Below are positions 5,025-64,000 of a DNA stretch of 64,000 nt, one piece after another. The stretch is taken from the NCBI RefSeq assembly GCF_963676685.1, contig NC_092351.1:25978001-26042000 (forward strand), written 5' to 3'. Source of the stretch: Mytilus edulis. Lineage: Eukaryota. How positions within the stretch are numbered: position 1 is the stretch's first letter; every line of letters begins with the position of its first letter. The notes under the pieces were generated by a model. That model ran no database searches. It saw nothing but the letters and a program-made list of their open reading frames with translations, and was not told the DNA's origin. The position numbers and the translations under genes are program-made.

Positions 5025-36745
<31,721 letters not shown>

Positions 36746-37429: not shown

Positions 37430-40400
37430 CAATTCATTAATGCTTGTCATTTCGCTGTTAATAGGGACTCCGGCCTGAAGTATGTCCAAGCTGAGACAAC
37501 TATTATAATCTCAGGTCCTAAGTGAACAGAAATTTGGATGATTTTATGGTGAAAACAAACGAATGTCTAACAAAAGGGGGATACACCCTCTACTCCCCAG
37601 AATTCGAAACTGATCTTGGTAAATTTACCAATAAATAAAGTCCTAAAAGGCTCATAAATATTTGTTCCTTATATTACTGGCAAATGCATTCGACACCGAA
37701 ACAAACCCAGGCCCTCGTTCACCTAGGTGGCCTTGCGGAAGTTGTAGTAAGGCAGTGACATGGAAACATCATGCTGTCTGCTGCGACTCCTGTGAAACTT
37801 GGTACCACATCGATTGCCAAGGAATACCAAACCAAATATACAACATAATGAATAATAGTAATATAAGTTGGCACTGTATACAATGTGGTATGCCAAATTT
37901 TAGCTCAAGCTTCTTTAACTTTACAACCTTAGAAACATCAAATATATATGACAGCTTATATAAATTCACCAAGCAGTCTTAGAGATGTAGGAAGTCCAGG
38001 TGCACCAACAGCTGCATCATCTCCAATTCCACACAAACTTCCCTGTCATGAAAAAGCTTATACAACAACAAAAAAGAGCAAAATGCCATTAAATTCTAAA
38101 CATGAATTTTCAATCAATTAAAAACAAAAAACCGGACCTACTAGAAATTATTGATACTGTCAAACCAGATATCATACTAGGTACCGAAACATGGTTAGAA
38201 CCAAACACCTCTTCTTACGAGCACTTTCCATCAGATTTATATAATGTGTATCGCAATGACAGGGCACCAAGTACCAACAACCAAAGCTATGGGGGTGTAC
38301 TTATAGCAATTACAAAAGAATTCATAAGTTCAGAGGTAAAAGAACTAGAAACTGAATGTGAAGTAGTCTGGGCAGAAATCAATATCGCTTGCTGAAAAAC
38401 ATCTTAATATCATCCTACTACAGACCACCATCTGACACAGGATTGTCTCTAGAGCAACTCCATCAATCTCTAAATCGTATCAATAGTCAATCAAATGCAA
38501 CCATCTTTGTGGGGGTGATTTTAACTTGGGACATATTGATTGGTCAACATCAAGCACAATACCATGCAAACCTGACATACAACTTCACCAAAATCTCTAA
38601 GATATAATGAATGACACAAACCTACATCAAGTTGTCAATACACCAACAAGAAATGACCGTATACTAGATCTCATAATGATTAACAACCCAACATACATCA
38701 ACAAAGTAACCACACTACCACCAATAGGTTCAAGCGACCATGATATTGTTTATGCCGAAGCAGACATCTGGCTTAAGAAAATAAGAGAAACCCCACAAAA
38801 AGTATACAAGTATAACAAAGCCAACTGGGACGAAATTAAACTTGACATATGTATCATCTACAAAACAATCATTGACAACTATGATTCTCTTAACGCCAAT
38901 GAGCTATGGGAACTATTTAAAACCAAACTCATCAGCTCTGTCGAAAAACATATTCCATCAAAGATCCTACGAAACAAACACCGATTACCGTGGATATCTG
39001 ATAAATTTTAAAAGACGTCAAATTAACAAGAAAAACAAACTTTTCAAAAGGCAAAAAAAAACAGGGAATACACTGAGAAATATAAAAAAAGATGAAAGCT
39101 CAGGTACAAAAAGAACAAAGGAAGGCCTACTGGGAATATATTGAAAAACTCATATGTGATCTTCCCATCAATGAACCAGACATTCAAATACAAAATCAGA
39201 GCAAACCTAAAAAAAACTTTTTCAATACATCAAATCAATAAAAACTGAAGGATCGAAAAGCTCTTAAATAAGATCAACCCACATAAAGCCACCGGCCCAG
39301 ATAACATCAGTGGACGCTTACTGAAAGAAATGCAGACAGAAATAGCACCAATTCTATGCTTAATTTTTAACAAATCCTACAACACTGGTATTTCACCTAA
39401 CGACTGGAAACACGCTAGAGTCGCACCAGCATATAAAAAGGGGGATAAGCATAAACCGGTCACTTATAGACCTATCTCATTAACTTGTATTTGCTGCAAG
39501 TTAATGGAACACATAGTAACATCACATATTATGAAACATCTCATATCAAATAACATCTTGTACAACCTTCAACATGGCTTTCGGCGCTCTCGATCTTGTG
39601 AGACACAACTTCTCTCCTTCATCCAAGAACTTCAATCCACAAACAACTCAAATACTCAAACAGACCTTGTAATAATGGACTTTGCGAAGGTCTTTGATAA
39701 AGTACCGCATCGTCACTTACTATACAAATTACAATATTTTGGTATTAATGGAAACACTTTAAACTGGATCTCTGCATTTCTCTCCGATCGAACACAGACA
39801 GTTGTTCTGGGTGGAAGATCATCAAGCACAGTCCCAGTCACCTCTGGGGTTCCACAAGGTACTGTCTTAGGTCCGTCTTATTCTTAGCGTATATCAACGA
39901 CCTTCCAGACATCCTTACACATAGCAAACTAAGATTATTTGCTGATGACAGTATCATATACATGCCAGTTAAATCCCAGAGTGACTGCCTAAAATTGCAA
40001 GCTGACCTTGACGCAGCTGCAAAATGGGAAGAGGACTGGATAATGGCCTTCCACCCAGACAAGTGTAATGTTCTCTCTGTCACAACTAAACGTCAACCTC
40101 TACAACATAATAACACTCTTCACAATCATACTTTAGAAACTGTTACATCTGCTAAATACTTAGGCATCACATTACAATCAAACCTTAAATGGGACAAACA
40201 CATAGATGACAATATATCGAAAGCCAACAAAACTCTCGGCTTCCTTCGAAGAAACCTGAAAACAGCAAATCAAAACATCCAGAGCCAGGCATACCAAGCA
40301 CTTGTCCGTCCCAAACTCGAATACTCTTGCTCAGTTTGGGACCCCCACACTTCAGAATCTATCTCGAAGATAGAGATGATCCAAAGGAGAGCTTCTCGGT

Positions 40401-40774
40401 ATGCCTGCAACAGGTATCATAATACTAGCAGTGTATCAAACATGCTGAACACACTAAACTGGCCCATTTTAACACAACGCAGACTGCGTGCACGCCTGGT
40501 TATGATGTACAAGATCACACATCCTCTTGTTGCTATACTATCTAGCACAATTCTCATCCCATCAGACTCAAGAACCAGAAAACATCATTTTCACACCTTC
40601 AGACACATTTATACATCAAAAGACTCGTACAGATTTTCATTTTTTCCCATATACAATAACTCAATGGAATCTTTTACCAACCGCAGTAGTAAATGCACAG
40701 ACAGTCGACTCTTTCAAAGATCAGCTTACATATGCTGTTCTCTTCACTATCTTTTAAAAATCTTCATTTATTCA
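37430..40774 (+). mobile_element. Decayed CR1/L2-group non-LTR retrotransposon (2A-like motif, PHD finger, APE endonuclease, RT)
   Basis: Frameshifted ORFs: PHD C4HC3; NFQSIKNK/GTETWL/GGV/SDHD endonuclease; YRPISLT/QHGFR/DFAKVFDKV/GVPQGTVLGP/LFADD RT; SFFPYTITQWN C-terminus; 5' boundary approximate. Confidence 0.93.
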
Positions 40775-41310: not shown

Positions 41311-41759
41311 TTATTTAAAAGGAAAAATAAACATAAAATCCAGTAATTCGAACACTTACACATTAAAATTTTTAGATTTTAGATAGCGGCCGAGTGTGTA
41401 AAATATAGGATTAAGATTCTAACTATAAGTAGAGGAAACACACAAAACTACAACCAATATTTCTATTCGGAAAAAAAAGTAGACTTTACCATCTAGAAGA
41501 GGAGGTGGTCAGTGCCAAAGTTCAAGTCGACTAAGCGCATTCATGCACCAACGTTGTAAAATTACCTAATTGGTTTCTTCAACAGTGAGATTTATAACTT
41601 TTAAGAGGGACAGAGGATACCAAGGGGTCGATAGTATATCAGAAGAAACACGAAGAAAAGACCGACAAAATACAACACAGAAAACTGAGGACTGATCAAA
41701 CGAACCATAATAAAAGCCGTGATTGATTTCAGGTGTCGCAGAAAGAAAATCAAACACTA

Positions 41760-42400
41760 GCTGCTCTCCATTGTGGCACCCGTCTTACTCAGTGATGTTT
41801 CAATCGAAGAAAACAGGACGTAATTGTGGTTACGACAATTGGAACATATACGCGGTCATCTGTGATACAGACATTCATTAATAGGCAAACATATCATGAT
41901 GACATCCGTAGATATTTTAATGGGACCACTCCAATTTCACCATAAGATCCCTTTCCCTTTGGTCAACTGCTTCTTTGTAAGCAACAGCCTTTTGTGGCTA
42001 CGACAATTGGAACACAGCTGTGGTCATCTGCATGTGATACAGAAATTATTTAATAGGCAAACATATTATGATGACATCCGTAGATATTTTGAAGGGATGA
42101 CACCAACTTTACCATAAGAAACCCTTGTGTCAAGTTCTTCTTTGCATGCAGCAGCCCTTTATCAAGAAAATCATAAAAAGAAACACAACATAAGGAATAT
42201 CTTATGAATTTGCTGCATGATATATGCTTAACATGCAGGCGATGCTGGAATGTTGCCACTATAAATAGAAATGAAAAGTTCACCACTTTAATCATCTCTT
42301 TTGTCGTAAAGTTTAGTTCTCAACCCTCAATGTCAATTTCTTAGACAAAATATATGAAGGACACTTACCGGTATCTGTGGTATCATTTGTTTCAAGTTTG
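41760..42400 (-). mobile_element. Penelope-like element RT C-terminal fragment with a local ~168-bp tandem duplication
   Basis: LETNDTTDTGKCPSY, FIRYSLCCVSFYDFLDKGLL...QGFLMVKLVSSLQNIYGCHH; unit ttgtggytacgacaattggaaca at ~41824 and ~41992. Confidence 0.8.
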
Positions 42401-42464
42401 ATGGATGCATTCGTTAACATTGCATTATCTAGTGATGGGACAGCATTATTCCCCGAGGATGTCA

Positions 42465-42775
42465 ACATCCCAGTAGTCAGCACTTCTGTGTTGACATGAA
42501 TTATCATTGATATGGCCATAGTTATCAGTTATACTGTTTACAAAAAATTTAAGTTAATTTTTTAAATACTAAGGCTTTTTTACATCAGGAAAAGATTACC
42601 TTAGCTGCATGTATTTGGCCATAATATTTAGGAATTTGGTCCTCAATGCTCTTCAAATTCGTACTTTATTTAGCCTTTTTTACTATTTTTTTTACTGGTG
42701 AGTCTTTTGTAGACGAAACGCGCGTCTGGCACAAGTTCAAAATTTCAAACCTGGTATATAATATGATGAATTTAT
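42465..42775 (+). repeat. Hammerhead-bearing interspersed repeat (mutated core CUGGUGA)
   Basis: Highly similar to 50165-50405; ctggtgagtcttttgtagacgaaacgcgcgtctggc at 42695-42730. Confidence 0.75.
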
Positions 42776-43641: not shown

Positions 43642-46600
43642 ATTTCGGAGCAGCAAGGGCACCATAGATTCAGTGTATAGACCCACTGGCGTGTATATAT
43701 ACCCTAGCACTCATTAGCCTTGCACCAGCTATGGGTCAAATTGTGATTGGATTTTTGAATCAAAGGCTATGGAAGTTAATCCAGACATAAACTCCGGTTG
43801 ATGGAACTCGTCAGCAACAGCAATCGTCTAAGGGATGGCAACCCTTACAGAAAAGCTGCCGGTCCTCCGGGCCCAGGAGGTTAAGCGTAGAGTTAATCAC
43901 CCTGCCTTGGAAAAAAATCTTGATTACAGAAACGACTACAATAGGCACTACTTTTTCTCGTCACAGACTGGAGAAAGAACATGCTTTAACCGAAAACAGC
44001 AGATGACGCGAAGGCCGATGGAGCTACAAGCAAACTAACTACTAGAATAGGCACATGGAATGTAAGAACACTTTACCAAAGTGGTAAATGTGCACAAGTA
44101 ACAACAGAGATGGATAGATACAAGATTGAAATTATAGGACTGAGCGAAGTAAGATGGAACACATTAGGTATGAAAAATTTGAATACAGCCCACACAATCA
44201 TATATTCTGGAATCACCAAACAAAATGACCCACATGAAAAGGAAGTTGGATTTCTTATAACAAAAAGATCTAAGACAGCCTTGCTGGAGTGGAATCCCAT
44301 CTCACCAAGAATTATCACAGCACGCTTCAACTCACGTTTCCAAAAAAAAACACCCTGATACAAATATACGCCCCTACTAATAGTGCAGAAGACTGTAAAA
44401 AGGAAGACTTCTACCATTCATTACAAACAACCATAGAAAAGTGCCAAACAGAGACCTGTTGGTACTCATGTGTGACCTAAATGCCAAGGTTGGATCGGAA
44501 AGAAAGGGATGGGAGTGAGAGAAACTGGTCCTATTGGGATAGGAAAAATGAATGAAAACGGCGAACTATTTGCAGACTTCTGTGCTACCAACAACCTTGT
44601 TATAGGAGGAACACTCTTCAAACAAAAGAATTGCCATAAGGTAACCTGGGTTAACCCAGAAGGAAATGCAGAAAACCAAATAGACCACATGACCATTTCC
44701 TAGAGATGGAGGTCTTCACTGCAAGATGTAAGGGCAAAAAAGAGGAGCAGATGCAGCATCAGACCATCATCTATTTATAGGGTCAATAAAGATGAAACTT
44801 TTAGCCCAAAAAAGAACAGTTGTCAAAAGAAGAAAGTTTAACGTTGGTAAGCTTTAAATACCAAACATAAGAGAAGAATTCCAAATATCTCTTTAAAACC
44901 GATTTTCAGCTATAAGTGACCTGCAAATAGAGAACAACAATATTAATGACACATGGGAGCAGGCAAAAAATGTAATCATAGAAACATGCGAGGAAACATT
45001 AGGATACATGCAGTATAAACGCAAAAAATGGATGTCAGATGATACATGGGTTAAGGTTGAAGAAAGAGAAAAAAAAAGGTAAATGTCACCTTAAGACAAC
45101 AGAAAAGACAAACACAAGATCTTTATAGAGAGAAAGACAAAGAAGTAAAGAAGAACTGTAAACATGACAAAAGAAACTATGTTGAACAACTAGCGCAAGA
45201 AGCAGAAAATGCCTGTAGCAAAGGAGACATAAAATCTCTCTACAACACAACTCGACAACTTAATGGTAGAAGATCCCACTCAAATGCTACAGTTAAAGAT
45301 AAAAGGCAATGTGATTACACAAATTGAAGAACAATTAAAACGATGGAAAGAACATTTTGAAGAAGTGCTAAACAGACCCCCTGCAACAAACCCACCTAAC
45401 ATCGAAGGGAGACAGGTCCTAAATATCAAGACAGGAAATATAACCAAAACAAAAGTAAATGCTGCAATAAAACAACTGAATAATGAAAAAGCAGCCGGGA
45501 TCGACAATATACCCCCTGAAGCTATTAAGGCAATGGATAACATCTGTTTTGATAAACTTCACCAACTACTTAACAAAATATGGAATGACGAACATATACC
45601 TGAAGACTGGCGTAAAGAAATACTCGTTAAACTACAAAAGAAAGGCGACAAATCCATCTGTAGCAACTGAAGAGGCATTATTTTGCTTTCCATTCCTAGC
45701 AAAGTCCAAAGTCACATCATCCTACAAAGATTAAAGAAAGAAGTTGATAAATTGCTGAGAGATGAACAGGCCGGTTTCAGACAAGATAGATCATGCATTG
45801 ACCAAATTGCCACATTAAGAATCATCATTGAGCAAACCATTGAATGGCAGACATCCCTATACTTAACATATGTGGATTTTGAAAGGGCTTTTGATAGTAT
45901 ATAACCATGAAGTACATTATTAGGCATTATGGAATACATGTCAAAATAATATCCGTCATCCAACAGCTCTATGACGGTTTTACTTGTCAAGTGAGCCATG
46001 CAGAGACCCTGACAAATCCATTTCCTGTAACAACTGATGTGAGGCAAGGATGGTTCTCTCCCCTCTCTTATTTCTGATGGGTATATACTGGGTGAATAAG
46101 TAAGACAAGTAAGACTGTACATAAATGCAAATAGGACAAAATCTATGAGAGTAAACGCGAACCACCTTAACAAAACCAAAATGAGAGATGCCGAAATTGA
46201 AGATGTCCGAGAATTTACATATCTTGGAAGTGTAATCAGTACACCAGAAGGGACAGATAAACATCCAATCTAGAAAATGAAAAGCACAACAAGCCTTTGC
46301 AATCCTTAAACCAGTCTGGAGGAGCATAGCACTCAGAAAAAATACCAAAATCAGGATCTTCAACTGCAATGTAAAATCTATACTTCTCTTTGGTTCAGAA
46401 ACTTGGAAATTAACAGCTGCGTCTACCAAAACAATACAAGTTTTCATGAACAAGTGTCTTAGAAACATCATAGGAATCAAGTCGCCTAACACCATTAGCA
46501 ACAAAGAACTATGGAAAAGGACTAAACAGGAACCAATAGAAAGAACAATTACGACACGTAGATGGAAATGGCTTGAACACACGTTACGTAAAACAACACT

Positions 46601-46812
46601 AATGTAACTAGACAGGCACTAGATTGGAATCCGCAGGGTCATCGTAAAAGAGGGCGACCAAAATCCACCTGGCGCAGAGATCTTACATCTAATCTACAGA
46701 AATTTGGGAAAACATGGACAGAAGCAAAGAAAATAGTCAAAGACAGGGAAAGATTGAAAGCTACTGTTGTCGCCCTATGTCCTCCATGGGACGAAGTGGA
46801 TTGTCAAGTAAG
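43524..46812 (+). mobile_element. Decayed near-full-length RTE-clade LINE
   Basis: RIGTWNVRTL, IIGLSEVRW, YAPTN, DLNAKVG, NENGE, NQIDH, SDHH endonuclease; KKGD..CSN.RGI.LL, EQAGFR, DFERAFDSI RT; RRWKWLEHTLRK, WNPQGHRKRGRPK C-terminus; many stops and frameshifts. Confidence 0.93.
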
Positions 46813-46872
46813 CCAAAGATAGGTAAATATGGCATATAAACTCATCATAGATACTAGGATCAAAATTGTGTA

Positions 46873-46916
46873 CACCAGACGTGCGTTTCGTCTACAAAAA
46901 ATACTCATCAGTTACC
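46873..46916 (-). ncRNA. Degenerate hammerhead ribozyme copy
   Basis: Minus strand ggtaaCTGATGAgtattttttgtagacGAAAcgcacGTCtggtg; stems I and II weakened. Confidence 0.55.
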
Positions 46917-47229: not shown

Positions 47230-47760
47230 TACAGCATAGTACTACTGTTGTCCATTTTCTGGCATAATACTTGCCTGAATCCCTTAGTATCATTCAAAGT
47301 TGTGATTCCAGTTTATAGATATTACACGACCCGCAGTATTTTGACCCTCGGACAACCGACACCACGTATTTTACATAGAAGATCCAAGTGTTGTTTATTA
47401 CATCCTGGCCACCATTTATAACTCGACCAACCTGGATTATTTATGAGGTGGGAACTTGCACAGGTGCAATTATTAATCAGAGGTTTAGACTTAAAATCGC
47501 CGATGAGATTCCGCACCACGTGTTTGTAAAATTTTATTTGCAATAAGGGTGGTATATGGAAAAGCAAAGGAACATACAATGTCTACAACAAAAACAGTTA
47601 AATTCATGTTTATCAAAAGGACACGCTATGAAATTTCTATTTGAAAACATGAGTTGCATAAAAAGCACGGAATTCGTAACCTATAGAGACACACCTCATA
47701 CAAAATGCCCGCTTAGACATTCATGCAATATAATTTGTATTTCTCCAGAAACAGTAAGTA
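47230..47760 (-). mobile_element. Penelope-like element fragment
   Basis: DFKSKP..CTCASS..I.NP segment; paralogous to 52090-52620. Confidence 0.6.
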
Positions 47761-48859: not shown

Positions 48860-49870
48860 ATAAAGGCAACAGTAGTATACCGCTGTTCAAAACCCATAAA
48901 TCCACGGACAAAAAACAAAATCGGGGTAACAAACCAAAACCGAGGGAAACGCATCAAATACAAGAGGAGAACAACGACACAACACTAAAATGTAACATAC
49001 ACAGAAACGGACTAAGCACTAGACAAAATCCTATGAGAACAACAAATATAACATCAAAGTCAAATACATGAATTTGAGATAGATAAGTACCGTGACACGT
49101 CTCAATGTGAATTTACACTCAAAAATAAGAGAAAACAAAAAAAAGTAAAATCACAAAAAACGACACAACGGAAACAGAACGTTAAAATGTAACACCCACA
49201 GAAACGAACTATTATATAACAATGGCCATATTCCTGACTTTGTACAGGACATTTTTAAAGGAGAAAAATGGTGGGTTAAACCTGGCCATGTGAAATATAA
49301 CATTAAAATGACAAAACAACATTACAGGACTACAATATAAATAAATAGGTGAACGCAATTGACAAAGAAATACACGAATAATAGCTAACAAAAGGCAACA
49401 ATTTTAAAATTTTAATACGCCAGAAGTTGCATTTTGTCCACACAAGACTTACTAGTGACGCCCAGATACAAAAGTTTGAAAGCCGAAACAAGTACAAAGT
49501 TGAACAGCATCGAGGACCAACAGTTCAAAAAAGTTGTGCCAAAAACGGCCAGGGTTTTCTGTTAGGTACCAGAATATTCCTATTATATAGAATAATTTAT
49601 ACTTTTGCAAAAAGTAAATTTTATAAAATGACTATAAAAAAGATATATGATAAAACTGAAGTATTAACTAACTACAGGAAACAACCGAAATACATTACAT
49701 AACCAGACAAAATGCATCACAAAATATAGACACATCCGAATAAGTTAAAACCTCAACGCCAAGTGACGTCATATTTGAAATTGTAAAAAAATGACAAAAA
49801 AATGACGTCACATTTGAATTTGTAAAACAAATTATCAAAAATGAAAAATGACGTCACATTTGAATGAATA
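48860..49870 (-). repeat. Repeat tract containing a diverged copy of the hammerhead-bearing family
   Basis: 49416-49463 reads gggcgtcactagtaagtcttgtgtggacaaaatgcaacttctggcgt on minus (decayed core); flanks match 50165-50405; three TGACGTCA motifs at ~49763-49855. Confidence 0.55.
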
Positions 49871-50324
49871 ACGGAACAGAAGATACCAGGCGGACATTTA
49901 AAAATCTTAAATCACGGGAAAACAACGAAAAGACAGACAAAGTCCACAGACATCACACAGTAAAACTGGTGTGTGAGAAGGGAAACCAAATACTCCTTCC
50001 CTAGTAGCATCCGTCTTGTTGTCTAATGACAAATAAACATTCTTTGATACGTTTTTCTCATTATTTACCAGTCACGGAAAGGAAAAGTGGACGGTAATGT
50101 AGCCACAATAATGAGAACATACCTGCGATCATCTGTGAAACATACATATTTATATTTATAAATTAATTGTTTACAAAACTTTTGAATTTTTGAAATACTA
50201 AGGCTTTCCTACATCACGAACAGATTACTTTGACTGTATTTGGCAAAACTTTTAGGAATTTTGGTTCTCATTGCTCTGCAACTTCGTACTTTATTTGGCC
50301 TTTTTAACTTTTTTGGATTCGAGA

Positions 50325-50364
50325 GTCACTGATGAGTCTTTTGTAGACGAAACGCACGTCTGGC
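50325..50364 (+). ncRNA. Minimal type I hammerhead ribozyme within a ~240-bp repeat (50165-50405)
   Basis: gtca-CTGATGA-gtct tttgt agac-GAAA-c gcac GTC-tggc: intact core, stem II GUCU/AGAC, very short stem III, stem I GUCA/UGGC. Confidence 0.8.
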
Positions 50365-50484
50365 GTAAATACAAAATTTAATCCTGGTATCTATGATGAG
50401 TTTATATACGTTAACATATCATTATGACGTCCGTAGATATTTTGAAAAAACAACTCCAACTTTACCTTTATTTAGGAACCCTTG

Positions 50485-51500
50485 TGTCGACTGCTTCGCA
50501 ATATCTTCATCGTTGCGTATCCTTAATGGCAGAACAATGGGTGCACACACTTGCTTCCAACCTTTAGGAAGTAGTGTTGTCGATTATTTTTTAGCATCTG
50601 AGGAACTCTTACCAAATTTCACATATTTTCACACTCATAATTTTTTACCTGAATTCTCAGATCATTGTCAGATCTCATGCATGTTAAAATGCAACACAAA
50701 AATTTATGAAAGAAACTTAAATCTAGCTTTAATGCCAGATAAATATATATGGGATGATAAATCAGTCTCAGCATTTCAAGATGCCATAAATTCAAATGAA
50801 ATCAAAAAATTTATTAGACAGTATAAAGATAAAATTTATGACCAAGATTCAATTAATAATGCCGCAGAAGATTTAAATCAGATTTATCACTAAAGAAAAT
50901 TATTAGAAAACCAAAAAAAAGCAAGAAGAAGAAAATTAAAAAGAAAAGAGAATGGCAAGATCAAGATATAATAAATTTAAAACAAAACTTATATCGAAAA
51001 TACAAATTAATGCAAAATCATAACACAGATCCTTATGTACGAGGGGCCTTTTTTAAATGCCTGAAATCGTATCGAAAACAAAGAAGAGCAAAAATAAGAA
51101 AATTCAAACAAGACATCATGAATATACTCGATAATTTATATGATCAAAATCCCAAAGCCTATTGGCAACTACTAGATAAAATTAAAAATATCTCAAATAA
51201 TAGTCAAAACAAATCTGAGAATACTATCGACCCATCTGAATGGCAAGAATACTTTCAAAAATTAAATAAGAATGAACAATATAGTGATGATTTGATTAAA
51301 AAGAAATTTGAATCATTTCATAATGAAAATGTTTTTAATAAACTTCACTACTTAATAACACCTGAGGAAGTAGAAAAACAATAAAAAGTCTTAAGAATTC
51401 CAAATCGAGTGGATTCAGCATGATCTCGAATGAAATGATAAAATATAGCCAAAACATTTGTATCCCTCTAATACAAAAACTCTTTAATTTAGTATTTTCA
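50485..51500 (+). mobile_element. Internal fragment of an APE-type LINE (endonuclease C-terminus to start of RT)
   Basis: LRILNGR...GSSVVDY...SDHCQI; then LKNSKSSG..ISNEMIK...KLFNLVF, cut off by the adjacent PLE fragment. Confidence 0.85.
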
Positions 51501-51905
51501 AGAAGTTCCTGTATAGAGTCAGCCCCATAATAAAAAAGAAACAAGTCGGCAAGAAGAGGGGCACAATTCGTTCCCATTAGAATGCCGATAGTCTGTTGAA
51601 AAACACGCCCTCCAAACGTAACAAATATGTTGTCAATCAAGAAATCAAACATCTTGATAACGTCAGTTTCAGGGAATTTTTTGTTTGAATCGGAGTGGTC
51701 CTTTACAAAGTAGGATGTATCCCTCCCTAAGACTAGATACTTGTATATACTTTGGTCATTCTTTTTTATGAAACAAAGTAATACCAACTCTTTCAATTTG
51801 TCTTTTAGTTTGGAATGTGGAATACTTGTGTAAAGCGAAGAAAAGTCAAATGTTTTAATACTACTACAAGATGAAAGAGAGTGTGTACTCTAAAAGATCT
51901 TTGGA
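51500..51905 (-). mobile_element. Penelope-like element RT core fragment
   Basis: FLIDNIFVTFGGRVFQQTIGILMGTNCAPLLADLFLFYY, characteristic PLE RT. Confidence 0.9.
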
Positions 51906-52089: not shown

Positions 52090-52620
52090 TTATGACAATT
52101 AAACAGCTGTATACTACTGTTGCCTTTATTTGTGCATTTTCTGGCATAATACTTGACTGAATCCGTTAGTGTCATTTAAAACTGTGTTTCCAGTGTACCG
52201 ACGGTATTTCGATTCTCTGTGAACACACACAACACATTTCACATAGGAATGCTGTTTTAATATGTTCAGGTCCCCATTATAACTCGGCCAACATGAATTA
52301 TTTATGAGTGGGGAACATGCACGAGTACAATCAAAAGGTTTAGACTTAAAATCGTCAATGAGATCATGCACCACGTGTTGTCGTTAAAATTTTAGTCGTA
52401 ATAGGTGTAGTATATGGAATAAAAAGGGAAAATATAACGACTACGACAAAAGCAGTAATGTTTATGAAAAGGACATTTCATAAAATTTCCCTTTGAATAA
52501 ATATGACGTAATATTGTATAAAGAGCGTTGAATTCGTAACCCCACAGAGATAAACCTCTAAAAAGCTGCCTGCTTTATACATTCATTCAAAGAAATCTTC
52601 ATAAATAGTTCTGTCACGGA
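52090..52620 (-). mobile_element. Penelope-like element fragment (paralog of 47230-47760)
   Basis: DDFKSKPFDCTRACSPLINN...GDLNI; nucleotide similarity to 47230-47760. Confidence 0.6.
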
Positions 52621-52809
52621 CTTCATATTGCGTTACTTGTAGTGTTATATGAGCACGAGAAAGAAAAAAAGTATAATTAGATCTGGACACTAGCCGAATG
52701 CATACAAATCGACACTTGAACGGATTTTCATATGACAGATTGAGCTTAACGTTTATTAAAATGTATCGCAGGCTAAAAACCTCATCCTTGCAACTCCTCT
52801 CCGTAGACA

Positions 52810-53300
52810 GAAGGAAGACTACTGGATTCGGCAGTTGGGTACTGCGAGACCATATTGTTGCAATGACAAAATTGATGTTAACGGTATTCTTTCAAGTCCT
52901 TGCTGCAGCTCGGTGAATGTGATGAATATTTTCAATTCTATTCCTCGACGTAGAATCGGTCATGACCAACGTAATTATATATCACATAATCTCCATGATG
53001 TCTCAATAAATGACCTTGTGTCATTTATACAAAAGCCGTTAGGTATTCATCAAATTTGCACGAATCTTTATTCATTACCCCTTTCTAACCTTTCTCTGTA
53101 CCACTGTTACCAACCTTATTCGAACCAATACAAACTTACAGCTTTCATTTCGGATATTGCAAGTCACAGACTTTAAACCTGTTTGCAATGGAAAAGATGT
53201 AAAGGAGAACAGATACTTTCTCAAATGGTGAAGTTGAAATCATCCCTTTGTAAATTTTAGGGACGCCATCACGAGTTGAGCTACGTGATATCCGATTCTA
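52810..53300 (+). mobile_element. Penelope-like element fragments (N-terminal region joined to C-terminal piece)
   Basis: YCCNDKIDVNGILSSP...DIASHRL, then LKSSLCKF.GRHHEL. Confidence 0.6.
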
Positions 53301-53919
53301 ATATGACGTGCTTCTTTCGCTTTGTAATCAACACCGTGCTAAAATTCTCGATATATCTATACTTAGCGCAGACTCCAAGATGTACATAAATGGCTGTTTA
53401 AATATGCCTCCCACGTAAATCCACATGTATCGTAACCTATGTGTAAACGATTGTGGATTTCGCTGTGTCAACAATTACAATTGTATAAAAACCCTACAGA
53501 ACATTTATTCTGATTCTGACGCATAACAAAAAGAATTTACACATTTAGAGAACGGAAAATGGACAAAAACAAAATAAATTAAAATTCCGCGAAATTCCAG
53601 TAATGATTTTGGCACATTAACGTCATTTCAAAACATGACGTCATACGAATGAAAACGTCAAAGCTGAAGGTTTTTCTATTGCGTTTACCTTCTAAACTCG
53701 AATACAATTGCATTAAAATAAAGTATTGAGGTAGGTGTTGCTTGTTTTCTGTTCTATTGCATTATTCGCACATTTACTAATTTCAGCAAGTCAACATGGC
53801 GGCTCCTTGGTTACAATATTTAACAGTAGCTTACGATAAAAAAATGTAAATTTAAAATTGCAAATGTTGGGTTTACTGAGAAGTAAAAAAAGTAATCACA
53901 TTTTTTTTCTAGCGGTTAG

Positions 53920-54337
53920 TTAAGAAATCATTCATGCAAGTTTATTAGATTTGTTTTACATTTATCGAACAGTGGGTAAAATAGAACAGCCACACACACG
54001 GTATACCCATCATCGCTTCAGTTTTTTAATGATCGTATTTGTCCTATTAGAATCGAAATAATTCATGGAAGCCATAGATTTGTTGTAAATTTACACATGG
54101 CCTGGGCCGTGATATTCGTTAATTTTATCCCTCGCTAACGCTCAGGATAAAATTCGAATATCACGGCCCAGGCCATGTGTAAATTTCCAACAAATCTATG
54201 TAAATTTACACATGGCCTGGGCCGTGATATTCGTTAATTTTATCCCTCGCTAACGCTCAGGATAAAATTCGAATATCACGGCCCAGGCCATGTGTAAATT
54301 TCCAACAAATCTATGGCTTCCATGAATTATTTCTTAA
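53920..54337. mobile_element. TTAA-bounded foldback element with a tandemly duplicated 115-bp hairpin
   Basis: ttaagaaatcattcatg ... catgaattatttcttaa termini; identical units 54085-54199 and 54200-54314, each a ~40-bp-arm palindrome. Confidence 0.85.
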
Positions 54338-55065
54338 TTCACAGATGATTCTCAGATCTGCAGTGACATCACAACATGTAACTGACCAATCGATGATTAG
54401 CATTTTTGTTATGTAAACAATGTTGATAGGTGATGCGGATAAGATTCCTCTAGATTTTCCATAGACTTATTGCAAATTAATTTAATTGATATATATCATA
54501 ACCAGTTGAATATAGTAATTTTACTCTTGTAATACTGTTAAAGACACTATATACTATCTCCATTTTGATTTTGAACATACTATAACCTCTGGTTAAAAAA
54601 TAATCGGCAATATAAATAATCAGTTATCCCCTTCAAATAGATGAAAAATCTAGAGGATTCCGGATTTCATCACCTCCTGACAAATGTGAATGCCAGGATG
54701 TCCGGATCTGAGAATATATCGAGTATTTTTTTAATGTCGTAACTACAATCCCATTCCCTTTCAACGAATGTGTCCTACCAAATTAGACTATTTAGGTTTA
54801 ATACCACCATTGATTTTCCCCTAATAGTCTTTGTTAAATTTGCAAGTCGAATTCAAGGGAATATATTTTTAAACCTATTTTCGTATGCAACCGGATGTGA
54901 CATTCTATGATTTGTTGGTATTACACCTTTATCGGGTTTGTAATAACATAAACAGCACGAAATGTGCCACATGTGGAACAGGATTTGCTTACCCTTCCGG
55001 ATCACCTGAGATTCAAACCTGGTATCTATGGTTAGTTTATTTTTCTTATACCTATACCAAATTAA

Positions 55066-56954: not shown

Positions 56955-58799
56955 AATTAATTGCAACATAGAATTTAATTACACACTTGCTGCAGGATCT
57001 CAATATCGACGACTACAAGGCTAAACCGTCTGATTGGAAACACAATCTTTTAAGACCTAAATGATGCAAAACGATGTCCTACCTGCATGACAAATATCTT
57101 GTCACCGCAGACAATGACCCAAACACATCGTTTTTGTGAGTACTAGTAAATCACATCAGATAAACTGCTTGATAAATGAATCAGGTATTGCCAATTAATT
57201 TGGAAAATCGAGAAATATGGCAGTTTTTATCAAATAATTTGTTTTTTATGAATGTTGCATTGGCGTTTGTTTTTGTTTCACTGCAGGGATTCTGTTGTTC
57301 CGTTATTTTCCTCTTATAGTTGATTTGTTGTCCTTGGTTTTATTTCGTAAAACATGTTGAACTGCGTCTGTCACAAGTAAGAATCCTCTGGCCTTTGTTA
57401 GTCTTGTATGATTTTTAATCTTAGTTCATGTATTTTTGTGATTTTACTTTTTATATATTTCGGAGTAAGGTATGACGTCCATTCTTACTGAACTAATACA
57501 CATTTTTGTTCAAGGGCCGGCTTAAGCACACCTCCAGTTGCAGGATTTTCTTGCTGTGTTGAAGACATATTGGTGGCCTTCGTCTGTTTTCTGCTCTTTG
57601 GTCTGGTTGTTGTACCTTTGACACATTCCCCAATTTCATTCTCAATTTTATTAGGTATGGTGTGAACAAAAAGGAAATTATTATAGCAGTGTCAGCTGCA
57701 CTATTGCTGATAATAGTTTATCAATTAATCTTGTAAGAAATAGGACCAACAAATAGACTTGAAGCTTCGATTTATTTCTTTTTTAGGGTTTTTCTATATG
57801 ACCGGAAGTCTATTTGGATATTAACAGTGTTGGAATGAGTGTCATCATGGACGAAGATGCTACTGAATAACAGAAAATGGGGCATCCTTTTTGCAGTCTC
57901 ACAGAATATCTGAGAAAAGGATTTGCTATTAAAAGGATTGATTCATCTGTTCTTTACCAAGTCAGGTTCCTGTTGTTCAGTGGTTGTTGGTTTTTTTTTT
58001 TTTTGTAAATTGTTTTGTTATATGTTAGGCTTAACTGTTTCATAGTTTTCATGACTTGGCTTTCATAGCGAACTATACAGTATTGAAGTTTAATCATTGT
58101 TGAAAGCTGTATGGAGGCTTATAATTAATTACTTACATATACTTTTTTCAAATTTTAATGTAAAATTATCTCATTGGCTATCATACAACATCTCCTTATT
58201 TGTATGGACTAGCCAAACTTTTTTACTCAACAGTTTAAAGATTTCACAAGTAACAATTTAAAGTGACACAGGACACGATATTATTCTTTAAATAATAAAG
58301 CTATTTATATGAACATGTCTCAAAATTTATTTTGAGATATAAAAACAATAACACGGCCGCACCTTCAGTGACTTTCACATCTATATTCTCTTTCATTTAA
58401 TATTCATGGTAAAATTGGGTTTCCCTTAAGGGCTATTCCTAAAATAAACATATGGAGGAAGGGGGTTAGAAGGCACTTTATCAGAATAATTTTTTGTATG
58501 GATAGGGACAAGTCACAAAGGTCAAATTGTATTGATATATATGTGCATACAAAAAATGCAAGTATATATGTGATAGTCATAAATTTTTATTAAAAATAAT
58601 AAAGCTATTTATAAAAACATGTTTTAAAAACAATGGCACCTTGAGTGACTTTCATGACAGTTCACAATCAAGTTATTCAAATCATATTTTTTTAGATTCT
58701 GTTAAATAAAATCGATAACTGAATAAAATAAAAATGACTAGTTTCAATGCATTTGGCATTATAATAAATCAACTGCATCTCATAGTGAACAAATTGCTT

Positions 58800-58967: not shown

Positions 58968-61359
58968 CTGTAAAGGTAGAAATTGTCATGTATAAAGTTT
59001 TGGTCTCAATTGTTAATAAGGGTATGCATTACTATATTGCAAATTGGAAGAAAAATTTGTAAAAGTTCCACGGAACCCAGTGCCTCACCTTCTTTATGTA
59101 GATAATATATATTTTAGGAACTTTAATTGCAGAGTGTATGTAATGTAACTGGAAGAAAACTACGTACATAATTAAGTAAAATACGAAAAATCAAGATATC
59201 TTTTTACAAAATTTCCTTCTAGATACTAGCTTTTGATCATAAACAAGCTTGTGTCCCAAGTTTGGTAGAAATCCAAGAAATTTAAAGTAAAATATGAAAA
59301 AAGGATTTTTTTTTTTACAAAATTTACTTTTGGGTACCATCTTCTGATCATAAACATGTGTTTGTCCTTGTTAATAATCCAGGATAGTTTAAAAAAGTTA
59401 TTAAAATTTTAAATCTTTAACCACAGAGTGAATGTTATGTTAACTGGCAGGAAAACTAAGTCCATTTGTAAGTAAAATACGTATAAACAGATTTCTTTAT
59501 TACAAAATTTATTTCTGGATACTATCTTATGATCATAAACAAGCTTCTGTCCAAGTTTGGTAGAAATCAAGGATAGTTTAAGAAAGTTATCAAAATCTCA
59601 AAAACTTTAACCACAGAGTGAATATTTGTGGATGCCACTGCTGCCGACGAAAGGTAGGATTGCTGTGTCTTGCTTTTTTTAACAAATGTTGAATGCTCAA
59701 CAAAAATGTATTCATTAACAAATTCTAAAATAATACGACAATCAAATGTTCAAATGATTTTGCATGTTTTATATCTTAATGTTTAAATTGTAATATTTTA
59801 TAAGAAAATATGAACTTCACTTCTATATTTTCAGCAATAGCACAAATGCATGAATTTAAAAAAGCTTGCAAACTATGAAATAAATATAATACATGTTTTA
59901 TTCAAGTGCATACTTGCAACATTTTTTGTGTGACTCAGTTATAGATATCTGATGATACTTATTATGAAAGAAAATTGGTATTTATTTGGTTTAACAATGT
60001 ACCCTCCTCCAAATACTTCTTCATCTTCATATCTATGTTTTATTTTGTTGATTGAGTGCTGACTTTTTGTGTTATGTTTTACAGTTATGAAATATTCCTT
60101 AAACATGTATTTACCTGACATCCTGAGATGACCCCAAACTTATATCCAGCACAGTATGTTATATTGGTATTTACTTCCTGTTCCAGTGGTACTGTATTTG
60201 TTCTACATTCCTCCTCAGACAAGACATGTAACTTAGCTTCTCTGAGGTCTTGTACTGTTATAGCTTCATAGACAAAACAAACAAACGATCACTCATTATT
60301 CACAAGTTAAGTTCATAAGCTTATAAAAATCATCAACATCTGATAGTCAATGCAAGTGATAATTTCAGTTATTAAATATGAAAAACTAATAAATACAATA
60401 GTTGTATAGGAGCTGCTTAATTTTTATGAGCAATAATGATCACCCCTGATGTAATTTTTTTTTCTATGTGTACTTTTTATTGTGGACTGTTGTTTAAAAA
60501 ATCAAAAATCAACTTTATTTCTGTAGGCTATCAATGACTCTGTATCTTAGGCTCAAATTCCTAATTGTACTTCAACAAAAATGGTGTTCAAAATTTTTAT
60601 TGTTCTACGCTATCTTTACTATTTTACCAGTTGCAATACAGTGCTAAAAAACCCAAATACTGTACACATATACAACTAACATACCTTGATTAGAACTAAT
60701 ATATCCCCAGCCAGCTATGTAACAGTTACTTAGTGAAGTAAAAGCTGCCTTAGGTAAACAGGCAGGTAAGATATAGTCATTATAAGTTACAGACTTTTCC
60801 ATATGGATCAATGCCACATCATTGTATATTGGACCAATCCCTGTCCATGTTAACCTTGGATGATGAATGACCTTGTCTGCACGTCTGCTGGTGCCTTGAC
60901 CTCTAAGACGTTTGACTGATCCTAATTGAACTTCAATGTAATGAGGATTTTCTGTGTAGTTATGAGATCCTGGTCTGAAATTATCAAATATATACAAAAG
61001 TATGTCAAAATAAGCAAGAAAAGATAAATGGTTATATATTTCTGAAATCTTTACACAAAAAAACAATAACAATTAAGTAATCGTAACCAGATGTGTCATC
61101 TGAAAAACACCAAGAGAACATTGTAATAACGTACATTTGGCTATTATTGTAATTCAACAAATACAGTAAAATATAACTGATACCTACATAGCAACACAAT
61201 GGCCTGCTGTTACTACCCAGTCCTCTGATATCAATGTTCCACTACAGAAAGGTCTTCCAAGGTATGACAGGGACACAATCCATGGCCACTGACCCAAGGT
61301 GGCTATATCTCCACCAGAAACAAATGGAAGCATCAGGTTAGGGCTTTGTTCTCCACATT
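58800..61359 (-). CDS. S1A (trypsin/chymotrypsin-fold) serine protease, 3' four exons; 5' part not identified
   Basis: Catalytic triad motifs TAGHC, NDVAL, GDSGSP; CG...WPW, LPACLP, GWG; phases consistent; TGA at 58800. Confidence 0.93.
59040..59705. repeat. Intronic interspersed repeat with internal tandem units
   Basis: Recurring gatcataaacaagctt...ccaagtttggtagaaatc and ttaaccacagagtgaat blocks. Confidence 0.6.
60115..60254 (-). CDS. Serine protease exon
   Basis: VQDLREAKLHVLSEEECRTNT...YCAGYKFGVISGCQ; an alternative in-frame AAG acceptor would start at 60263. Confidence 0.88.
60685..60974 (-). CDS. Serine protease exon (catalytic Asp)
   Basis: PGSHNY...HHP...YNDVALIHM...ILPACLP...CYIAGWGYISSNQ; phase 2/1. 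Confidence 0.93.
61188..61359 (-). CDS. Serine protease exon (activation site, catalytic His)
   Basis: ECGEQSPNLMLPFVSGGDIATLGQWPWIVSLSYLGRPFCSGTLISEDWVVTAGHCVA; CAG/GTAGGT. Confidence 0.93.
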
Positions 61360-61495
61360 CTGAAACAATGGTAAAAAAAATTATAAAACAAAGAAATTTC
61401 AAGAAACTTGTAAAGTATACCCAGTCTCATAGTCATAAGTTACTACACCAGACTCCCATTTCATCTACAAAAGACTCACCAGTGACACATGAATA

Positions 61496-61942: not shown

Positions 61943-63151
61943 ATATTATGACGCCAAATAAAAAAAAGAAAAAGATATTCATTCTCAATAGTTTCCTCAT
62001 GGTCCCTACCTTATCCAGACACAGTAAGTCAGTTATATTAAATTTAAAGTGCTTGTAAGTCCTGAATGGTAAATATTGCTCTCATTTTGCAATGATAACT
62101 TAAAGTAAAACATTGAATTGTATTAAGCTGAAGGAAAATATTATGAATTAGCAATATCTTACTTTGTTCAAATCTAAACTGCGATTTAACTTGATTCAAT
62201 TTTAGACAGAATGATTCATACACCATGTACAACTTGTGTTCCTATAATAACATGGTTTTCTTGAAAAGTATGATAATACACTTATTCTTCATTCTGTAAC
62301 ACATTTTGTATTGCATCCATCCAAGAATAATTCAGGGATATTCTAAATATTTAACTAAGCATTTTTTATCCTTCAGATCTGGTTGTATAGTCCTAATTTG
62401 AATTCCATCCCCTAAATATAGGTATGCAATAGCAAATTTAATCACTGGAATAATTTGATTCACACTGTTTACCCGTCTCAACTTCTGCATTTCAATACAA
62501 TAGAACCTTTCAATAAATGTGAACTAACACTAAAATAATTAAAGAAATAATTAACCTATAACAAAACATATTTAAACCATAGATTTGTAAAATATATAAT
62601 AGGAAATAAGTAACAAATCTATATCATAGGTATATATACAAAAGATAGAAATACATGTTCTAAACTTGCTACAAGTTAGTAGTTAAATACCTTCACCAAG
62701 TGTTCAGATATTACACTTATGATTAGTTCTGAGTAAATAATTTATTATATTGTGCTGTTATGTGTGTTTCTTGTTTTATTTTCTCTAAATATTACAGTTC
62801 TAATGAAAAAATCTGGTCTGTATAAAAAAAATATTTTTTTTAATTACAATACAAAATATTACAAAATATAAAAATAAAAAGAATCTTTTACTTTCTACAT
62901 CAAAAGTAACAAAAAATAAACTATTGTGTGGTATTACTCCAGGACACAAAAGTAACTGCTTATACTATATAAGAGATGAGAACAATTGCTATCAATAATT
63001 AATGTACCACTTGCTATCAATAATTAATGTACCCTAACTATGTCAGAAGCTTAGTGTTTATTTCTGTTTGTGTGTCATTTGTATTAGTGAAAATCCTATA
63101 CGTTTGTCATTTAACACCTCTACAAATAACTGTAGATATGTCTCATATAAA

Positions 63152-64000
63152 AACTAGAGGCTCTAAAGAGCCTGTGTCGCTCACCTTGGTCTATGTGCAT
63201 ATTAAACAAAGGACACAAATGGATTCATGACAAAATTGTATTTTGGTGATGGTGATGTGTTTGAAGTTCTTACTTTACTGAACATTCTTGCTTCTTACAA
63301 TTATATCTATAATGAACTTTGCCCATTAGTAACAGAGAAAAATATTTGGTAAAAATTTACATAAATTTACCAAATTAATGAAAATTGTTAAAAATTGACT
63401 ATAAAGGGCAATAACTCCTTAAGGGGTCAATTGACAATTTAGGTCATGTGGACTTATTTGTAGATCTTACTTTGATGAACATTATCGCTGTTTACAGTTT
63501 ATCGCTATCTATAATAGTATTCAAGATAATAACCAAAAACAGCAAAATTTCTTTAAAAATTACCAATTGGAGGGCAGCAACCCAACAACCGGTTGTCCAA
63601 TTCATTTGAATATTTCAGGGCAGATATATATTGACTTGATTAACAATTTAACTCCTTGTCAGATTTCCTCTAAATGATTTGGTTTCAGAGTTATAAGCAA
63701 AAAACTACATTTTACTCCTGTTCTATTTTTAGCCGTGGTGGCCATCTTGGTTTGGATGGCCAGGTCATCGGACACATTTTTCAAACAAGGTACCTCAAAG
63801 ATAATTGTGGTTAAGTTTGAATTAATTTGGCCCAGTAGTTTCAGAGGAGAAGATTTTTGTAAAAGATAACTAAGATTTACAAAAAATGGTTAAAAATTGA
63901 CTATAAAGGGCAATAACTCCTAAAGGGCTCAACTGACCATTTCGGTCATGTTGACTTATTTGTAAATCTTACTTTGATGAACATTAATGCTGTAAACAGT
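63152..64000. mobile_element. Second copy of the 11320-14108 Helentron/HINE-like element (runs off the window)
   Basis: aactagaggctctaaagagcctgtgtcgctcaccttggtctatgtgcat... nearly identical to 11320 onward. Confidence 0.88.

Follow-up and report, generated by a model that had tools for sequence, protein, structure and literature searches.

A truncated, probably inactive retrozyme copy in Mytilus edulis, likely inserted by a Naiad reverse transcriptase via a predicted common hairpin

The insert and its surroundings

The window, a stretch of 64,000 nucleotides from Mytilus edulis (contig NC_092351.1, positions 25,978,001 to 26,042,000), harbors a hammerhead-bearing insert, damaged relatives of it and fragments of Naiad, a clade of Penelope-like elements (PLEs). 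The following features were identified.

50150..50405, + strand: 5'-truncated solo copy of the 364-bp unit of retrozyme family 1, aligned to the array monomer; 90-92% identity to the best other genomic copies
50323..50366, + strand: type I hammerhead (Rfam RF00163, 30 bits), cut after C50360
50361..50405, + strand: 45-nt tail from the cut to the fixed 3' end of the family, the putative start of reverse transcription (from locus ends and read exits)
49900..50149 (left limit approximate), - strand: left flank, decayed Naiad 3' UTR, antisense to the insert (aligned to an intact Naiad 3' end; score 70, shuffle maximum 44)
50406..50497, - strand: right flank, decayed end of the Naiad reverse transcriptase (RT) ORF (score 47, shuffle maximum 38)
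51497..51859, - strand: Naiad RT fragment outside the insert, given for context; 87% amino-acid identity to an intact 1000-aa Naiad frame
42425..42775, + strand: decayed copy of nearly unit length with a CUGGUGA core and a hairpin remnant at its 5' end
46834..46915, - strand: short 3' fragment that stops at the fixed 3' end; stem II broken
49416..49670, - strand: decayed copy with a mutated core, nearest to family 2
61444..61494, - strand: hammerhead-only remnant with a mutated core, upstream of a trypsin-like exon on the same strand

The insert comprises 256 nt and corresponds to unit positions ~154-364 followed by 1-45, counted from the ribozyme cut. About 110 nt of the unit are missing, and the copy contains one hammerhead and no Naiad-type hairpin, which in full units begins 7 nt beyond the 45-nt tail. 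An element at 50165-50405 had originally been predicted; its 3' end was confirmed at 50405, and its start was moved to ~50150. The two flanks are collinear across the insert with the end of the Naiad ORF and the 3' UTR (joint score 104, shuffle maximum 42) and lie antisense to it. This indicates that the insert interrupts an old Naiad remnant, in agreement with the predicted interruption of a PLE remnant. Pfam contains no family that matches the Naiad fragments of the window. The motif TTTATAT at both junctions (50149-50155 and 50401-50407) was considered as a target-site duplication and rejected, as it overlaps element sequence.

All four related copies that had been predicted in the window are present, and each is damaged in its core or stems. 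The hammerhead at 42695-42730, with CUGGUGA, lacks the 5' strand of stem I, and the hairpin model described below matches 42425-42484 of the same copy at 24.6 bits. Stem II is broken in the hammerhead at 46873-46916, and the core is damaged in those at 49416-49463, in the copy nearer to family 2 than to family 1, and at 61444-61488. The window also contains more scattered Naiad fragments of varied age and orientation (41665-42415, 47252-47567, 52135-53305, 54716-55047 and 56960-57217). A fragment at ~50500-51381 resembles, by its motif, what we take to be the endonuclease end of a LINE. Two broken LINE-type elements with RVT_1 matches are located at 37647-40754 and 43990-46819, and trypsin-like protease exons (Pfam PF00089) at 60647-61426 on the - strand. 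A near-perfect palindromic repeat with a 115-nt period occupies 54055-54333; miRNA matches at 54091-54297 scored far under the gathering scores and were discarded as unrelated. A tandem array of alternating 500/502-bp units extends over 11686-13992, with another copy at the end of the window (63151-64000).

The hammerhead and its families

The hammerhead at 50323-50366 is real. Every catalytic residue predicted within 50325-50364 is present, with the 5' strand of stem I at 50323-50328, CUGAUGA at 50329-50335, stem II (GUCU/AGAC) at 50336-50339/50345-50348, GAAA at 50349-50352 and the cleavage triplet GUC at 50358-50360. The Rfam model Hammerhead_1, proposed beforehand as a check, matched this region at 30.0 bits (E 0.0022), which is under its gathering score of 34; array copies elsewhere in the genome reached 27.7-33 bits. 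The 32-nt core occurs in 3,596 exact copies in the 1.37-Gb genome and the control in none, thus the hammerhead is not a chance occurrence. Stem III of the window copy, ACGCACGU, is non-palindromic: A50356 breaks the palindrome at a site where 36 of 37 matched copies harbor a G. A second substitution, A50324, forms an A-G mismatch in stem I, where a C is found in 36 of the 37. The lowest-energy fold differs from the active fold in the window copy and in a typical copy alike.

Across six sequences of five families, which are related rows, 71 of 72 stem cells are paired (98.6%), the unpaired cell belonging to the window copy, and double changes occur in 4 of the 12 hammerhead pairs. The 8-nt palindrome of stem III is kept across these related rows with differing letters, three of its four pairs showing double changes between families. 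The covariation among copies that had been anticipated was thereby found both in the hammerhead stems and in the palindrome. These alignments indicate that selection acts on the ribozyme in this lineage. Conservation of the palindrome suggests that dimer folding is still useful, and dimers may therefore form. However, the proposal of a minimal hammerhead that cleaves as a dimer calls for refinement. Helix III consists of two pairs and a four-base loop, and monomers of the published mussel retrozyme cleave by themselves at ~0.1/min according to the accessible part of the report (PMC7229834). Thus the ribozyme does not belong to the minimal PLE type that lacks helix III, and dimer-only cleavage is not expected.

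Family 1 was defined from the 30 best genomic matches as a 364-bp head-to-tail unit with a GC content of 36%. Seven units were seen at locus L018, and further arrays at L002 and L027. The arrays are plain head-to-tail repeats with one hammerhead per unit, so that the tandem genomic copies looked for on the basis of the original prediction do exist. Sister family 2 has a 356-bp unit with 82% identity to family 1, and sister family 3 a 350-bp unit with 68% identity; a pattern covering families 3-5 yielded 4,460 genomic matches. Two longer families of ~549 and ~535 bp (L166-L169, L180-L182, L105 and L145) carry a hammerhead like that of family 3 and no Naiad-1 or Naiad-2 hairpin, and have a different fixed 3' end, at cut+371. 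In unit size, copy number and type of ribozyme, the family agrees with the non-LTR retrozymes already known from mussels, and the hammerhead, the 364-bp arrays and the covariation between families uphold the predicted retrozyme identity. The window copy is an ordinary insertion of this published kind of element.

Transcription was assessed in four raw RNA runs that carry the same species label and derive from other animals; three of them are stranded. At 85% likeness to one unit, 5,483 of 8.7 M, 6,679 of 8.3 M, 8,926 of 7.3 M and 3,369 of 12.7 M reads were recovered, that is 265-1,217 reads per million for the family group, mostly family 2-like rather than family 1. In the three stranded runs, reads from the ribozyme strand outnumbered those from the other strand along most of the unit. 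Read ends did not pile up at the cut in any of the four runs, and some reads wrapped around the unit, which circles and tandem read-through explain equally well. In each run, 27-72 reads from these other animals exit the family at the position of 50405 into mixed flanks.

Around the insert itself, RNA depth was zero at 49850-50128 and 50439-50531 in the four runs, whose donors may lack the insertion. Together with the truncation and the single hammerhead with two rare substitutions, this indicates that the window copy is probably dead. As copying appears to have halted after 256 nt, the insert was left with one ribozyme and no hairpin, and should be able neither to form circles nor to be recopied. 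The predicted circle of ~250-400 nt is therefore excluded for this copy.

Insertion ends and a hairpin common to retrozymes and Naiads

Insertion ends of family 1 were mapped at the first 30 exact-core matches on contig 1, of which 25 were kept. Four were left out because their array or flank is shared with another row (L033, L035, L036 and L045; the anchor also failed in L035 and L045), and L058, with a 3' end at +45, because its 5' anchor failed. The 3' ends are located at cut+44 to +55 in 23 of the 25 loci, and the 5' ends are spread across unit positions 80-322. A constant 3' end combined with scattered 5' ends is the pattern left by target-primed copying that always begins at one point. 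The 25 loci revealed no target-site duplications, which in this type of retrozyme exceed 4 bp when present; the longest word shared across the junctions was 5.0 nt versus 5.2 nt in mismatched pairs. Genome-wide, a 22-nt pattern from the tail occurs 7,932 times and a 15-nt tail pattern joined to the start of the hairpin 1,348 times, the two patterns differing in length.

Directly beyond this end, at cut+53 to +112, a bulged hairpin of ~60 nt is predicted in family 1. Unit positions 53-114 match the sequence directly before the ORF of Naiad-1 over 62 nt with 84% identity. The hairpin also precedes the ORF of Naiad-2, which shares 56% amino-acid identity with Naiad-1; here the outer pairs are changed and 21 nt are inserted. 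In L141 (4906-5003, - strand) this 21-nt stem-loop follows the second helix, a site that evidently tolerates insertion. The bulged stem is predicted alike in retrozyme 1, retrozyme 3 and Naiad-1 (z -2.3 to -3.6), and its bulged residues are invariant. Among nine related and non-independent sequences, 115 of 117 cells are paired (98%), and double changes occur in 4 of 13 pairs, each contributed by a single Naiad row; the count is limited to the outer two helices, since the inner stem of Naiad-2 is wrongly placed in the alignment. The double changes keep the pairing, which indicates an RNA structure. A pseudoknot was considered and set aside, as the helix it requires is disrupted in Naiad-1 and predictions favor the nested fold.

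Among the sources sampled, the hairpin was confined to the two kinds of element. All 30 sampled hairpin matches fall into Naiad-1 (9), Naiad-2 (3) or retrozyme families 1-3 (18). A covariance model of the hairpin, run against 41 sources (288 kb), matched Naiad loci and two retrozyme remnants, with no match under E 0.5 in the sampled PLEs with C-terminal endonuclease or in family 4/5 arrays. No Rfam family matches the hairpin. The elements also have the insertion end-point in common: of 17 Naiad-1 3' ends, 15 lie 2-7 nt short of the hairpin, which is the offset of the retrozyme, and the Naiad hairpin is preceded by the element's own 3' end in 11 of 12 cases. Two further families served as controls. 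In family 3 the hairpin begins at cut+39, and all 16 distinct arrays end at cut+32 to +42, nine of them at +34. The end thus shifts with the hairpin, which shows that its position tracks the hairpin and not the ribozyme. In family 4, which has a related, family 3-like hammerhead and no hairpin, 8 of 11 ends fall at cut+369 to +373.

Naiad elements with intact frames are present in the genome, with 1000 aa in L073-L076 (Naiad-1) and 1053 aa in L141 (Naiad-2). The frames comprise an N-terminal GIY-YIG domain, a CxC and a DKA motif and a C-terminal RT, and the fragments in the window match them. A search of Naiad locus L075 revealed no Rfam hammerhead up to E 1. Another Naiad locus contains a retrozyme fragment (L074:8538-8780) whose hammerhead is interrupted by an inverted Naiad 3' end. 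The mere closeness of Naiad remnants to the insert carries no weight as evidence for a helper, given how abundant such pieces are (the RT search gave 20,556 first-look candidates). The PLE sample, based on 150 GIY-YIG hits with 30 loci and nine extended ones, covers part of the PLE families of the genome. It includes several families with open frames of RT plus C-terminal GIY-YIG (755-959 aa; L142-L149), and L142, L146 and L147 possess small hammerheads of their own with 6-nt palindromes. Such a hammerhead-bearing PLE was at first clearly favored over Naiad as the helper. This candidate was rejected, since these elements lack the hairpin and their terminal regions and ORFs show no similarity to the unit besides inserted retrozyme copies.

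The hairpin and end-point common to both elements, the behavior of families 3 and 4 and the absence of the hairpin from the sampled hammerhead-bearing PLEs point to the Naiad RT as the likely helper that copies the retrozyme. The original suggestion of a PLE helper thus stands at the level of the clade, namely Naiad, by way of the common hairpin and end-point. It falls for the fragments around the insert, which are broken and no source of RT. As judged from these footprints, we consider it quite likely that the window copy, a truncated and probably inactive solo copy of the 364-bp repeat, was inserted by a Naiad RT via the predicted hairpin.

The following sequence of events would account for the observations. 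Arrays would be transcribed mostly from the ribozyme strand, as seen for the family group. The hammerheads would cut the transcripts to unit length and a host ligase would close the circles, as published for the mussel retrozyme. Genomic footprints suggest that the Naiad protein binds the hairpin at cut+53 to +112 and nicks AT-rich DNA, and that copying begins on the RNA at a point ~4-8 nt 5' of the hairpin. Copying of circles or multimers with a random stop may then cause the observed pattern of fixed 3' ends, variable 5' ends and head-to-tail arrays. Early stops would leave clipped solo copies like that in the window, and long runs would leave arrays.

Three other roles of the hairpin were weighed. 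It might be a trace of ancestry only, the retrozyme having arisen from a piece of a Naiad 5' end and now being copied by a hammerhead-bearing Penelope of the Neptune or Poseidon type. Open-ORF elements that bear hammerheads are indeed present in this genome, and Xenopus retrozymes match the pLTRs of hammerhead-bearing PLEs in the portion available of a recent preprint (bioRxiv 10.64898/2026.07.22.740005). However, the unit resembles neither the ORFs nor the terminal regions of these elements, inserted copies aside, and the hairpin is absent from them. Moreover, families 1 and 3 resemble each other most closely in the hairpin (88% versus 65% for the body), and the 3' end follows it; this origin without a Naiad helper is therefore unlikely. 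Alternatively, the hairpin might be a processing signal, an undescribed ribozyme or a nuclease site that cuts the RNA just 5' of it, with the RT starting at the free 3' end. Naiads, described as devoid of hammerheads in the accessible text of PMC8557442, might need another way to release unit-length RNA. The invariance of the bulged residues would suit such a site, and 5' ribozymes occur in other retroelements according to the part seen of PMC7761336. Yet 389-769 reads per stranded run cross from the tail into the hairpin with no pile-up of read ends there, Rfam holds no match, and a second cut would destroy the published circles of 350-390 nt, which makes processing a decidedly improbable explanation. 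We regard it as very improbable that the hairpin is a DNA-level or promoter element borrowed from the Naiad 5' end for transcription, with the fixed end caused otherwise. The hairpin does lie at the 5' end of full-length Naiads (9 nt from the start of L073), the region that holds an internal promoter in Penelope according to the accessible text of PMC8557442, but the pairing kept by double changes speaks for an RNA structure, and 3' ends fixed just upstream in both types of element would be left unexplained. That the window copy is itself a working ribozyme with a local role is extremely improbable: its catalytic core, stem II and four pairs of stem I are left, but its active fold reaches -2.0 versus -6.7 kcal/mol in a typical copy, its palindrome duplex -3.1 versus -13.3 kcal/mol, its folding is not above shuffles, and its flanks show zero depth in the four runs from other animals.

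The use of a Naiad helper remains the preferred reading, and at the level of the families it leads to a wider proposal. Mussel retrozymes are probably chimeric parasites that travel as circular RNA, combining a hammerhead that makes the circles with a captured Naiad hairpin of ~60 nt that docks the RT and sets its start. The parasite would thereby mark out the shortest signal that a hammerhead-free PLE clade needs for initiation, and families within one genome would use different helpers by way of different signals.

Relation to known systems

The link to Naiad at the family level, well supported by sequence footprints, outweighs the window copy in importance. In 2020 it was still an open question which enzyme spreads animal retrozymes, and how a Penelope-type RT selects its start site is known from one element only. 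With a 60-nt signal, a start predicted 4-8 nt ahead of it and young Naiads whose ORFs are intact, the two questions can be addressed together. If the proposal is true, a parasite defines the minimal initiation signal for a PLE clade without biochemistry so far, and the hairpin could be used as a short tag that directs an RT to insert circular RNA. No published account of a link between retrozymes and Naiad or of this hairpin was found, the search covering sources outside supplements and most subscription papers. The comparisons below refer to the accessible parts of the cited papers.

The non-LTR retrozyme of Mytilus galloprovincialis comprises ~5,000 hammerheads in repeats of 350-390 bp and forms abundant circles (Cervera and de la Peña 2020, PMC7229834). 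The elements analyzed here resemble it in the type I hammerhead, low GC, thousands of copies, more than one ribozyme family and abundant RNA. Their units of 364, 356 and 350 bp with a GC of 36% correspond to the published size and a GC below 45-50%, a likeness judged from the description of the published repeats; the window copy differs from the published repeats as a truncated solo. The accessible text of PMC7229834 leaves the helper unnamed, suggests PLEs and describes neither a fixed 3' end nor a Naiad hairpin; the review PMC7761336 (2020) likewise treats PLEs as likely helpers only.

Naiads lack canonical hammerheads according to Craig et al. (2021, PMC8557442), in whose main text the words "stem-loop" and "hairpin" are absent. 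The retrozyme shares with them partial tandems, 5' truncation, the lack of a clear target-site duplication and AT-rich targets, and the hairpin and insertion end-point reported here are common to both. The two differ in that Naiad is autonomous and without a canonical hammerhead, whereas the retrozyme has a hammerhead and no ORF.

Retrozymes of frogs have been tied to the pLTRs of PLEs, with only Neptune and Poseidon detected there (Li, Clavereau and Pollet 2026, bioRxiv 10.64898/2026.07.22.740005). Like these vertebrate pLTR-derived retrozymes, the mussel elements are non-autonomous hammerhead repeats linked to PLEs with many solo monomers. The vertebrate link, however, is one of pLTR homology, mussels not being among the groups named, whereas the mussel link consists of a short hairpin from a hammerhead-free clade. 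Compared with the pLTR of a hammerhead-bearing PLE, the unit does not flank an ORF with RT and C-terminal GIY-YIG, and its helix III is not reduced to the conserved pair.

The closest biochemical parallel is Poseidon_Ac, which in vitro initiates reverse transcription internally, 5' of the region bound by the protein on the RNA (Frangieh et al. 2024, PMC11167929). A fixed internal start 5' of a region needed by the protein, a nick in AT-rich DNA and insertion ends that mark the starts would be common to both systems, as judged in the mussel from genomic footprints. Poseidon_Ac belongs to a different clade, its signal lies inside the ORF of an autonomous element, and it uses two start sites; in the mussel system a single start zone is observed, and a non-coding parasite shares the signal.
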